DNA of 64,000 bases from Escherichia coli (GTDB taxonomy: Bacteria; Pseudomonadota; Gammaproteobacteria; Enterobacterales; Enterobacteriaceae): the NCBI RefSeq assembly GCF_003334785.1, contig NZ_QOWV01000003.1. One strand, written 5' to 3'. This document shows positions 4,530-50,206 of the stretch, piece after piece; positions within the stretch are counted from its first letter, which is position 1, and every line of letters begins with the position of its first letter. The notes beneath the pieces were generated by a model. It ran no database searches, was not told where the DNA came from, and saw only the letters and a list, made by a program, of their open reading frames with translations. A program made the position numbers and the translations under genes.

Positions 4530-4608
4530 GTCTATAGCTGGTAAGATAATTACGTATTGCAAATATTCATTTTATTAATATTTAAACTTAATCTATATGG
4601 AATAATAT

Positions 4609-5010
4609 ATGACATGGAATCCGTTGGCGCTAGCGACGGCGCTGCAAACTGTACCTGAACAAAATATTGATGTAACAAATAGCGAGAACGCATTAATTAT
4701 TAAAATGAATGATTATGGCGATTTGCAAATCAATATTCTTTTTACTTCCCGCCAAATGATTATCGAAACCTTTATTTGTCCGGTGAGTAGTATCAGCAAT
4801 CCAGATGAATTTAATACCTTCTTATTAAGAAATCAGAAGATGATGCCGTTGTCATCGGTAGGGATCTCCAGCGTACAACAGGAAGAGTATTACATTGTTT
4901 TCGGGGCGTTATCGCTTAAATCTTCTCTTGAAGATATCCTGCTTGAGATAACCTCGCTGGTAGATAACGCATTGGATCTGGCTGAAATTACAGAAGAATA
5001 TTCACACTAA
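4609..5010 (+). CDS. yjfI: DUF2170-family protein YjfI
   Basis: 133-aa ORF recognised as YjfI; first gene of yjfIJKLMC cluster. Confidence 0.85.
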   Translation: MTWNPLALATALQTVPEQNIDVTNSENALIIKMNDYGDLQINILFTSRQMIIETFICPVSSISNPDEFNTFLLRNQKMMPLSSVGISSVQQEEYYIVFGALSLKSSLEDILLEITSLVDNALDLAEITEEYSH

Positions 5011-5028
5011 TTACAAGGACGGGTATTT

Positions 5029-5727
5029 ATGGGAATTTTAAAAAGTTTATTTACGCTGGGGAAATCGTTTATCTCCCAGGCGGAAGAATCCATTGAAGAA
5101 ACCCAGGGCGTGCGCATGCTGGAACAGCATATTCGTGACGCTAAAGCTGAACTCGATAAAGCCGGAAAATCTCGCGTTGATCTGCTGGCGCGGGTGAAAT
5201 TAAGTCACGATAAGCTGAAAGATTTACGTGAGCGCAAAGCCAGTCTGGAAGCCCGTGCGCTGGAAGCGTTAAGCAAGAACGTTAATCCGTCGTTGATTAA
5301 CGAAGTTGCTGAAGAAATCGCGCGCCTTGAGAATCTCATTACCGCTGAAGAGCAAGTGTTGTCGAATCTGGAAGTCTCCCGTGATGGCGTGGAAAAAGCA
5401 GTTACAGCGACAGCGCAGCGTATCGCTCAGTTTGAGCAGCAAATGGAAGTCGTTAAAGCCACTGAAGCCATGCAGCGTGCACAACAGGCTGTAACAACCT
5501 CTACCGTTGGCGCATCTTCCAGCGTTTCGACAGCGGCAGAATCCTTAAAACGCCTGCAAACGCGTCAGGCCGAACGTCAGGCTCGCCTGGATGCTGCCGC
5601 ACAGTTGGAGAAAGTCGCAGACGGTCGCGACCTTGACGAAAAGCTGGCGGAAGCCGGAATTGGCGGTAGCAATAAAAGTAGCGCCCAGGATGTATTAGCA
5701 AGACTGCAACGCCAACAGGGCGAGTAA
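5029..5727 (+). CDS. yjfJ: PspA/IM30-family protein YjfJ
   Basis: 232-aa coiled-coil-rich ORF recognised as YjfJ (PspA paralog). Confidence 0.88.
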   Translation: MGILKSLFTLGKSFISQAEESIEETQGVRMLEQHIRDAKAELDKAGKSRVDLLARVKLSHDKLKDLRERKASLEARALEALSKNVNPSLINEVAEEIARLENLITAEEQVLSNLEVSRDGVEKAVTATAQRIAQFEQQMEVVKATEAMQRAQQAVTTSTVGASSSVSTAAESLKRLQTRQAERQARLDAAAQLEKVADGRDLDEKLAEAGIGGSNKSSAQDVLARLQRQQGE

Positions 5728-5777
5728 TTTTTTTGCCAGCCTCGCTAAAAGGCTGGCAACTATTTTAAGGATAAAAT

Positions 5778-6437
5778 ATGTCTGGTTTTTTCCAGCGTCT
5801 GTTTGGCAAGGATAATAAGCCAGCTATCGCTCGTGGTCCGCTGGGACTTCATCTCAATAGTGGCTTTACGCTCGACACGTTAGCGTTTCGTTTGCTGGAA
5901 GATGAATTGCTGATTGCGCTGCCGGGTGAGGAATTTACGGTAGCCGCCGTCAGCCACATCGATCTGGGCGGCGGTAGTCAGATTTTCCGCTACTACACTT
6001 CAGGCGATGAGTTTCTGCAAATCAATACCACCGGCGGCGAAGATATTGATGACATTGATGATATCAAGCTCTTTGTCTATGAAGAGAGCTACGGTATCAG
6101 TAAAGAGAGTCACTGGCGCGAGGCGATCAACGCCAAAGCGATGGGAGCAATGACCTTAAACTGGCAGGAAAAACGCTGGCAGCGATTTTTTAACAGCGAA
6201 GAACCGGGAAATATCGAACCCGTCTACATGCTGGAAAAAGTAGAAAATCAAAACCATGCCAAATGGGAGGTCCATAATTTTACCATGGGCTACCAACGGC
6301 AAGTAACCGAAGATACTTACGAATATTTGCTGCTAAATGGTGAGGAATCTTTTAACGATCTCGGCGAGCCAGAGTGGTTATTTTCGCGCGCGTTGGGTGT
6401 CGATATCCCGCTGACATCACTTCATATTATTGGTTAA
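5778..6437 (+). CDS. yjfK: DUF2491-family protein YjfK
   Basis: 219-aa ORF recognised as YjfK. Confidence 0.85.
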   Translation: MSGFFQRLFGKDNKPAIARGPLGLHLNSGFTLDTLAFRLLEDELLIALPGEEFTVAAVSHIDLGGGSQIFRYYTSGDEFLQINTTGGEDIDDIDDIKLFVYEESYGISKESHWREAINAKAMGAMTLNWQEKRWQRFFNSEEPGNIEPVYMLEKVENQNHAKWEVHNFTMGYQRQVTEDTYEYLLLNGEESFNDLGEPEWLFSRALGVDIPLTSLHIIG

Positions 6438-39394: not shown

Positions 39395-39583
39395 CAGGGA
39401 CATCCTTTTATCATCGGGAATACGAAAGAAAAGGGAGAATAAACGCCTTACTTATAGAACAGTGAAGAATGCCACAATTTTACGCTTTGAAAATGATGAC
39501 ACTATCACAGTTGGCGCATTCATTAACGATAGGGTATAAGTAAAACAATAAGTTAACACCGCTCACAGAGACGAGGTGGAGAA

Positions 39584-40324
39584 ATGTTAGATCAAGTATG
39601 CCAGCTTGCACGGAATGCAGGCGATGCCATTATGCAGGTCTACGACGGGACGAAACCGATGGACGTCGTCAGCAAAGCGGACAATTCTCCGGTAACGGCA
39701 GCGGATATTGCCGCTCACACCGTTATCATGGACGGTTTACGTACGCTGACACCGGATATTCCGGTCCTTTCTGAAGAAGATCCTCCCGGTTGGGAAGTCC
39801 GTCAGCACTGGCAGCGTTACTGGCTGGTAGACCCGCTGGATGGTACTAAAGAGTTTATTAAACGTAATGGCGAATTCACCGTTAACATTGCGCTCATTGA
39901 CCATGGCAAACCGATTTTAGGTGTGGTGTATGCGCCGGTAATGAACATAATGTACAGCGCGGCAGAAGGCAAGGCCTGGAAAGAAGAGTGCGGTGTGCGC
40001 AAGCAGATTCAGGTCCGCGATGCGCGCCCGCCGCTGGTGGTTATCAGCCGTTCCCATGCAGATGCGGAGCTGAAAGAGTATCTGCAACAGCTTGGCGAAC
40101 ATCAGACCACGTCCATCGGCTCTTCGCTGAAATTCTGCCTGGTGGCGGAAGGGCAGGCGCAGCTGTACCCGCGCTTCGGACCAACGAATATTTGGGATAC
40201 CGCCGCTGGTCATGCTGTGGCTGCAGCTGCCGGAGCGCACGTTCATGACTGGCAGGGTAAACCGCTGGATTACACTCCGCGCGAGTCGTTCCTGAATCCG
40301 GGATTCAGAGTGTCTATTTATTAA
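39584..40324 (+). CDS. cysQ: 3'(2'),5'-bisphosphate nucleotidase
   Basis: 246-aa ORF recognised as CysQ (WLVDPLDGT motif). Confidence 0.92.
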
Positions 40325-40871
40325 TTAATTTATGCAGCAGGTCCATCACTTGCTGCACCTCTTCCTGTGTGAGCGCCCCGTCTTTGGCCCATTGCACGCG
40401 ACCATCCTTATCCAGCACCACTACAGCGGAACTTTCTTCATCCAGCTGCCAGGCACCGCGCGCGACGCCATTGCTATCGACAATAAACTGCGACCAGGGA
40501 TAAAGCTTTTTATTACTCTCCAGACTGCTGCGCACAAACATCCCTGAACCCGGAATCGCGTCGTCGGTGTTAACAATGGTGGTGGTCTGGTAGCGATCGT
40601 GCGGTAACTTCGCTGATTTAATCGCTTCAATCAGCGTCGCGTTTTTCTCTTTTGCAGAGGTGCGACCAGCAATATGTTGCAGTACTCGCACTTTTCCCAC
40701 TAACTGTGCGCTGTTCCAGGTTTTGTAGCTAAACTGATCTTTATCAAGCACCAACTCGCCTCGATCGGTAATGCCAATCGGCGGCACTCGCTGACCGGTT
40801 TCGAACTGATGTGCGGAAGCCATCATCGGCAACAGCAGGCAGGTGAGTGCCAGAATCTTGCGTAGGGTCAT
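40314..40871 (-). CDS. ytfJ: periplasmic protein YtfJ
   Basis: 184/185-aa ORF with signal peptide recognised as YtfJ; 3' end overlaps cysQ 3' end by 11 bp. Confidence 0.88.
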
Positions 40872-41195
40872 GGTGTTTCCTTCTTATGATATGCAGGTGA
40901 TCCGACCACTTGGGTCTGAGTTTTAATCATATGTGCTATTTATCGAATTTCCCGCAAGTGTGATGCCAGTTTGCGGTCAAGCGCACAAATCATATGAAAA
41001 ATGAATGCTTATACTGAAGACCGCGCTTCGGTAAAAAGATAATTCTGAATAATTGTAACCTTTAGGTAAAAAAAGTTATACGCGGTGGAAACATTGCCCG
41101 GATAGTCTATAGTCACTAAGCATTAAAATTTGCGCCTCATAATAGTTGGGCCGATTGTGGCACCGCACAGGCGTAATACTCAGCAGGAGATAACA

Positions 41196-49864: not shown

Positions 49865-50206
49865 TGCGATGTATCTCGCGATTTTTTTTTGTAACTTTTC
49901 CATCTTTTGCTTTTCTCTCCGAGCCGCTTTCCATATCTGCAATCGCATAAAAAACTCTGCTGGCGTTCACAAATGTGCAGGGGTAAAACGGGGGCACGCT
50001 TTGAACGGTGAGTATGAGTGAGGTCGGCTAACTTCCAGCAAGTGGCTATGAACAGCAAAATGGTGGTCGGGTTTGCTTGTTCTTACCGTTCAAGCCTTGC
50101 AACCGCTGAGAATAATGATGGTGGAATAGAGAGTTTATTTATCGCGGGCATAAAAAAACCCTTACTAACCGAAGCCCGGCGTTCAGGGTTATTGCGCTAG
50201 AAGAAC

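Follow-up and report, generated by a model that had tools for sequence, protein, structure and literature searches.

The stop-to-stop overlap of cysQ and ytfJ in Escherichia coli: a probably ancestral junction and a candidate 3'-end hairpin inside ytfJ

In the laboratory strain K-12 of Escherichia coli, the convergent genes cysQ and ytfJ are separated by a third gene, ytfI. In the stretch of E. coli DNA analyzed here (64,000 nucleotides of contig NZ_QOWV01000003.1, hereafter the window), the same two genes share their last base pairs and nothing lies between them. This arrangement raises the question of whether ytfI was lost from the window or never arrived there, and that of where the signals ending the two convergent transcripts could be located.

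The cysQ coding sequence (39584-40324, + strand) encodes a 3'(2'),5'-bisphosphate nucleotidase of 246 amino acids and terminates with a TAA codon at 40322-40324. The ytfJ coding sequence (40314-40871, - strand) encodes a protein of 185 amino acids with the C-terminus ...DLLHKLINK, and its TAG stop codon is the reverse complement of 40314-40316. Both open reading frames are true genes. CysQ matched the NCBIfam equivalog NF008182 over its whole length (residues 1-246 of 246; 525.3 bits for a cut-off of 379) as well as TIGR01331 (376.6 bits, cut-off 228.8), and it shares 99.2% amino acid identity with the CysQ of K-12. YtfJ matched TIGR01626 over residues 1-183 (306.8 bits, cut-off 151.1), and PF09695 is found in YtfJ relatives. 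Both reading frames are intact in the ORF listing of the window, and the RefSeq annotation of a genome that is 100% identical across cysQ and ytfJ contains the same two overlapping coding sequences.

An earlier reading of this DNA, made from the letters and general knowledge (the sequence-only reading), had described cysQ and ytfJ as converging with an 11-bp overlap at 40314-40324, a description borne out by both the ORF listing and the sequence. The overlap, CTATTTATTAA, comprises the last codons and the stop codons of the two genes. The ytfJ locus was retrieved from 80 species representatives of the Enterobacteriaceae and both stop codons were located in each genome, revealing that cysQ and ytfJ overlap in 74 of the 80, by 11 bp (n=40), 7 bp (n=28) or 4 bp (n=6). 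The 11-bp class takes in Citrobacter, Salmonella enterica arizonae, Klebsiella, Raoultella and other Escherichia species, the 7-bp class Enterobacter, several Kosakonia, Pluralibacter, Lelliottia and others, and the 4-bp class Kluyvera, two Trabulsiella representatives and Yokenella. At its core, the junction follows the family motif CTATTTAYTRA. Since the same stop-to-stop overlap is present in 74 of the 80 species representatives, it does not result from a chance extension of an open reading frame.

Within E. coli, cysQ and ytfJ are contiguous in 3801 of the 5426 complete genomes. Among the matches listed, at least six complete genomes are 100% identical to the window over 1,288 bp, and the junction itself, which shows no scar, matches those of Escherichia sp. 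MOD1-EC7003 and four further divergent E. coli at every base. Tail-to-tail overlaps are not unusual, two more being found within the window, between yjfP and ulaR (12174-12177; 4 bp, TTAA-type) and between a tetR-like gene and ytfB (30912-30928; 17 bp). Like cysQ and ytfJ, both pairs are convergent, share their stop regions and have no intergenic DNA. A literature search on cysQ and ytfJ returned nothing about the overlap or the transcript ends at this locus.

Its statement that K-12 carries ytfI between cysQ and ytfJ was also correct, as seen in the K-12 strain J53, in which cysQ, ytfI (939 bp, on the cysQ strand) and ytfJ follow one another with a spacer of 1,212 bp between the outer genes. 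The same reading had called ytfI a small gene, which does not hold for a protein of 312 amino acids. It had also proposed a comparison of the cysQ-ytfJ interval with K-12, under which an identical arrangement would have told against it. We compared the window with 49 kb of K-12 by BLAST, and the two arrangements differ. The alignment stops at 40324 and restarts at 40327, leaving 1,222 bp of K-12 opposite only 2 bp of the window (40325-40326). These mark an empty insertion site, whose position can be fixed with a precision of about 11-16 bp. In the window, BLAST against K-12 detected no ytfI-homologous DNA between the two stop codons, and no ORF is possible there. The right breakpoint falls inside the last ytfJ codons, and the YtfJ C-termini therefore differ: the K-12 protein has 184 amino acids and ends in ...DLLQKLLK, compared with 185 amino acids and ...DLLHKLINK in the window. 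The spacer of K-12 has a G+C content of 34.7%, against 49.5% for its flanks. A search for local recombination around the insertion, comparing the window with K-12 in 1-kb bins, gave a divergence of ~1-3% throughout and no local signal.

Other cargo occupies the cysQ/ytfJ junction elsewhere in the family. In E. albertii (positions 4556-6059 of retrieved locus L009), the junction encodes a pentapeptide-repeat protein of 385 aa that weakly resembles T3SS effectors of the PipB2/SopA type. In Citrobacter youngae ATCC 29220 (L045, 4559-6678), it holds a TIGR04222 membrane protein and a radical SAM/SPASM enzyme. About 35 bp from the 3' end of ytfJ, including the hairpin H2 described below, are directly duplicated around this cargo. 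A D-Ala-D-Ala-carboxypeptidase-like gene is present at the junction in Kluyvera (L062 and L063, about 4556-5460), while K. intermedia (L070, 4556-4626) has a spacer of 71 bp consisting essentially of an H2-like hairpin. Two sequences filed as 'E. coli' in RefSeq, NZ_CP144926.1 (L003, 4742-6245) and NZ_CP144930.1, have a cysQ only 87.9% identical to that of the window and a spacer of 1,504 bp, as in E. albertii, encoding a near-identical 385-aa pentapeptide-repeat protein. Despite this label, both probably belong to E. albertii or to one of its close relatives.

Regarding the ends of the two transcripts, the sequence-only reading had concluded that the overlap leaves no room for independent terminators. 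It was right that there is no intergenic DNA, for which reason any 3'-end signal would have to reside inside the partner gene; room nevertheless exists there, as hairpins lie past both stop codons, H2 in ytfJ and H1 in cysQ. H2 (40333-40357) is an inverted repeat with a 9-bp stem, TGCAGCAGG-TCCATCA-CTTGCTGCA, and constitutes a candidate pause/termination or 3'-protective hairpin. It begins 9 nt past the cysQ stop, within ytfJ codons 172-180 (V-Q-Q-V-x-x-L-L-H). Its predicted folding energy is -15.5 kcal/mol (z -2.6) on the + strand, in the cysQ sense, and -14.0 kcal/mol (z -3.5) on the - strand, in the ytfJ sense.

An intrinsic terminator combines a stable G+C-rich stem-loop shortly after the stop with a U run 3' of the stem. 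H2 provides the first feature, 9 nt past the cysQ stop, but not the second, the + strand continuing with CCUCUUCCUG and the - strand with UAAAUUAAUU. Because a U-tract is missing on either strand, H2 is by definition not an intrinsic terminator, and its position on the ytfJ strand, 17 nt before the stop codon is reached, precludes a classical terminator function for ytfJ. A terminator pattern scan of the junction detected no canonical intrinsic terminator; it left H2 uncalled, and its sole hit there was H1, whose T-run is poor. Away from the junction, the closest sites resembling a terminator were one on the + strand beyond the start of ytfJ (40899-40916) and one on the - strand within cysQ (39797-39782). 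No Rfam match was obtained at the junction.

The RNAalifold consensus of the 74 overlapping junctions picked out H2 in the family form TGCAGCAGG-N7-CCTGCTGCA, with 99.5% of cells paired across the 74 species. As six of the nine pairs never vary, only one pair covaries (GC in 68 species, GU in 3 and AU in 3), and this covariation is confined to Escherichia. In the window, pair 8 is a G·U on the cysQ-sense RNA and an A·C on the ytfJ-sense RNA, a small hint in favor of the cysQ strand.

Since H2 is coding sequence, its conservation was tested against the requirement of the protein, by ranking synonymous diversity at every conserved Leu, Gln and Val position in the two genes. Counted from the lowest diversity, Leu179 and Leu178 ranked first and third of 31, Gln173 and Gln174 first and fourth of 14, and Val172 first of 25. 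In addition, every possible stem of at least 7 bp was scanned over both codon alignments (1.3 kb). H2 was the sole hairpin, in either gene, formed in at least 90% of the species (95%), the next best reaching 76%. Four distant YtfJ lineages (41-55% identity), drawn from a search of 50% representatives and in which ytfJ is not beside cysQ, do not display the H2 palindrome; the protein motif differs there too. Lastly, wherever the two genes are separated, a strong hairpin directly follows the cysQ stop, and in C. youngae and Kluyvera intermedia this hairpin is a duplicated copy of H2. These fresh hairpins at occupied loci are consistent with a need of cysQ for a hairpin just past its stop.

On the other strand, H1 (CTGAATCCGGGATTCAG, 40292-40308) follows the ytfJ stop at a distance of 6 nt, within the final codons of cysQ, and is a weak candidate for the 3' end of ytfJ. 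Its z score is -0.8 to -1.1. The family version, CCCGGCTTCCGGG, had 86% of cells paired and showed no covariation in explicit pair counts, and RNAalifold on the 74 junctions gave H1 no support. At position 40303, the window carries an A where other sampled E. coli carry a G (GGGATTCAG vs GGGGTTCAG); this change, synonymous in the Gly codon (GGA vs GGG), replaces a G·U of H1 with a perfect A-U pair.

We propose that H2 would most likely pause or terminate the RNA polymerase transcribing in the cysQ sense, or protect the 3' end of the cysQ mRNA. Acting without a U-tract, it could be aided by head-on polymerase collision and/or by Rho, and the weaker H1 inside cysQ could serve ytfJ likewise. That H2 is a functional 3'-end element placed to serve cysQ is put forward tentatively, from its conservation and from analogy with the hairpins discussed at the end. 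The broader proposition, namely that ytfJ codons carry a pause/termination or 3'-protection element of cysQ and that the stop-to-stop junction is at the same time a recurrent landing site for small single-gene cargo, is a more doubtful one. If it were true, H2 would be a terminator-like signal written into the coding sequence of the partner gene, and the cargo list of the site would comprise ytfI in E. coli, the pentapeptide-repeat gene in E. albertii, the radical-SAM pair in Citrobacter youngae and the peptidase-like gene in Kluyvera.

Alternatively, the two genes could have no dedicated 3'-end signals, each being read through as antisense RNA until Rho or distant terminators intervene, and H2 could owe its conservation to something else, for example to a protein that binds the palindrome in the DNA, to an effect on the stability or translation of the ytfJ mRNA, or to a preference for certain codons. 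The lack of a canonical intrinsic terminator at the junction and of a U-tract after H2 speaks for such read-through. Enteric bacteria favor CTG for Leu and CAG for Gln, which would also fit. On the other side, the neighboring conserved Leu codons 167, 182 and 183 have a codon entropy of 1.8-2.3 bits, against 0.1-0.33 bits for the Leu codons of the stem. Moreover, the five stem codons found at or near the bottom of their class are mutually complementary, no other hairpin is as conserved over the 1.3 kb, the variable pair passes through GC, GU and AU, and each separated locus has its own hairpin behind cysQ. We regard read-through with an unrelated cause for H2 as the main rival, though less likely than not.

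We now turn to the origin of the junction itself. Because the outgroups overlap (74 of the 80 species representatives), the comparison of sequences indicates that the overlap, also the majority state in E. coli, is ancestral in the Enterobacteriaceae, that K-12 is derived and that nothing was lost in the window. The suggestion of the sequence-only reading that ytfI is absent or fused out thus stands as to absence, with 2 bp in the window for 1,222 bp in K-12, and finds no support as to loss or fusion, given the overlapping outgroups and the lack of a scar. In our reading, the junction was inherited from the common ancestor of the Enterobacteriaceae, most E. coli retaining the overlap, and an AT-rich, H-NS-bound segment of 1.2 kb, carrying the orphan ytfI and its own flanking hairpins, was later acquired horizontally, separating cysQ from ytfJ and replacing the last ytfJ codons. 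Taken jointly, an ancestral compact junction, a later insertion of ytfI in K-12 and ~30% of E. coli, and 3'-end signals inside the partner genes very probably provide the best explanation of the locus.

The insertion was described by Higashi et al. (2016, PLoS Genet 12:e1005796; PMC4720273), who report in S10 Fig that ytfI is a K-12-specific H-NS-bound insertion at the cysQ/ytfJ site, with SE11 and SE15 devoid of ytfI, and that the neighboring genes are H-NS-bound only where ytfI is present. In our survey, the K-12-type ytfI segment was present in 1623 of 5,426 complete E. coli genomes (~30%). At least 99% identity to the K-12 copy was observed for 366 of these 1,623 segments; we infer that these are largely K-12 derivatives, which inflate the share of ytfI. 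Between E. coli lineages, the identity of the segment is 98.3% for K-12 versus O157:H7 and ~96.5% versus others. Since this divergence is about that of core genes, the ytfI polymorphism is old within the species.

YtfI itself gave no match in Pfam or NCBIfam. Two sub-threshold matches, to Cas6b in PADLOC (E 8e-4, no significant stretch) and to phrog_3250 in PHROG (E 2e-3), were taken as noise. Two versions of YtfI found at the same site (L001, 3953-4891, and L007, 4661-5575) share only 69% protein identity, although the flanking CysQ and YtfJ are 96-98% identical. YtfI is thus a fast-evolving orphan, which fits the H-NS 'diversification' theme of PMC4720273.

The age of the segment also bears on the reverse scenario, in which the lineage of the window once had ytfI and a precise deletion happened to restore the 11-bp overlap. 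With its wide distribution and a divergence between E. coli lineages similar to that of core genes, the segment is old enough in the species to have been lost again in some of them, and the ends of the K-12 island bear a loose, AT-rich likeness to the overlap (~11/16 positions; left TCTATTTACTAA, right CCATTATTTGAG), which could support recombination. These flanking repeats are, however, too short and imperfect for a clean excision to be expected, and the window contains no remnant of island DNA. Furthermore, the junction is identical in four divergent empty-site E. coli and another Escherichia, and homologous to the empty site of 74 species. The C-terminus of YtfJ points in the same direction, as ...KLINK in the window follows the outgroups (...KLLNK in E. 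marmotae, ...KLLSK in Salmonella and Citrobacter rodentium) and not the ...KLLK of K-12. Precise deletion is therefore quite improbable. As for the island of K-12, its origin could involve either a short target-site duplication or a simple replacement of the last codons. The idea that the missing ytfI is an assembly or sequence artefact deserves practically no credence, since no point in its support was found, 3801 complete genomes share the contiguous arrangement and both frames are intact.

Several other features of the window were observed in passing. A full-length match to Rfam RF02756 (ES239 sRNA; 154.5 bits, gathering score 62) is located at 39395-39517 (+ strand), in the divergent intergenic region between cpdB and cysQ and just upstream of the cysQ start at 39584; it may correspond to a cysQ leader. 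Between rplI and ytfB (~21087-30525), the window contains ~9.4 kb not found in K-12, with three TRAP transporter genes and genes for an FAD-dependent oxidoreductase, a CoA transferase, an enoyl-CoA hydratase, a sugar-phosphate isomerase, a 3-ketoacyl-ACP reductase and an intact TetR regulator, where K-12 has yjfZ and a truncated TetR pseudogene. Conversely, the chpS-chpB toxin-antitoxin pair of K-12 (634 bp, in the ytfP/ppa interval) is missing from the window, which has 128 bp of unrelated sequence instead (49991-50118).

The absence of ytfI matters little in itself: K-12, the habitual reference, is the derived state here and made the norm look odd. The absence, the fact that ytfI is an insertion and the annotation of the two genes as overlapping had all been documented before, the arrangement of the window being present in the literature and in the RefSeq annotation of thousands of genomes. 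Our additions are small and concern how old the overlap is in the family, the constraint on synonymous sites within H2 and the repeated occupation of the junction by different cargo genes. They depict the locus as a clean, compact convergent pair whose cysQ 3'-end hairpin is apparently kept by selection on ytfJ synonymous sites, and whose same few base pairs took different small cargo genes in different genera.

Three known systems can be compared with the junction of the window. First, the cysQ-ytfI-ytfJ locus of K-12 (b4214-b4216) resembles it in its flanking genes (~98% nucleotide identity), in an identical H2 and in a CysQ of the same length and C-terminus, and differs from it by the AT-rich 1,212-bp spacer containing ytfI, with its own hairpins after cysQ and after ytfI. 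Secondly, E. coli SE11 and SE15, as presented in S10 Fig of PMC4720273, have the same cpdB-cysQ-ytfJ-ytfK order without ytfI as the window; the sections of that paper dealing with the locus treat it as an example of H-NS spreading and do not discuss the overlap, its age or the embedded hairpin.

Thirdly, bidirectional terminators are described for convergent gene pairs of E. coli (Ju et al. 2019, cited after 10.1101/2022.10.23.513370). The latter preprint (Wang et al. 2022) reports hairpins between such genes that are unlike intrinsic terminators and Rho-independent, and proposes that they pause converging polymerases, head-on collision then stopping transcription. These elements sit between genes, whereas H2 is embedded in the coding sequence of ytfJ, before its stop codon, a position that would suit cysQ but not ytfJ. 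Even in this coding end, H2 has the traits of the collision-type elements, being a palindrome at a convergent boundary that is predicted to fold in both transcripts and does not resemble an intrinsic terminator.
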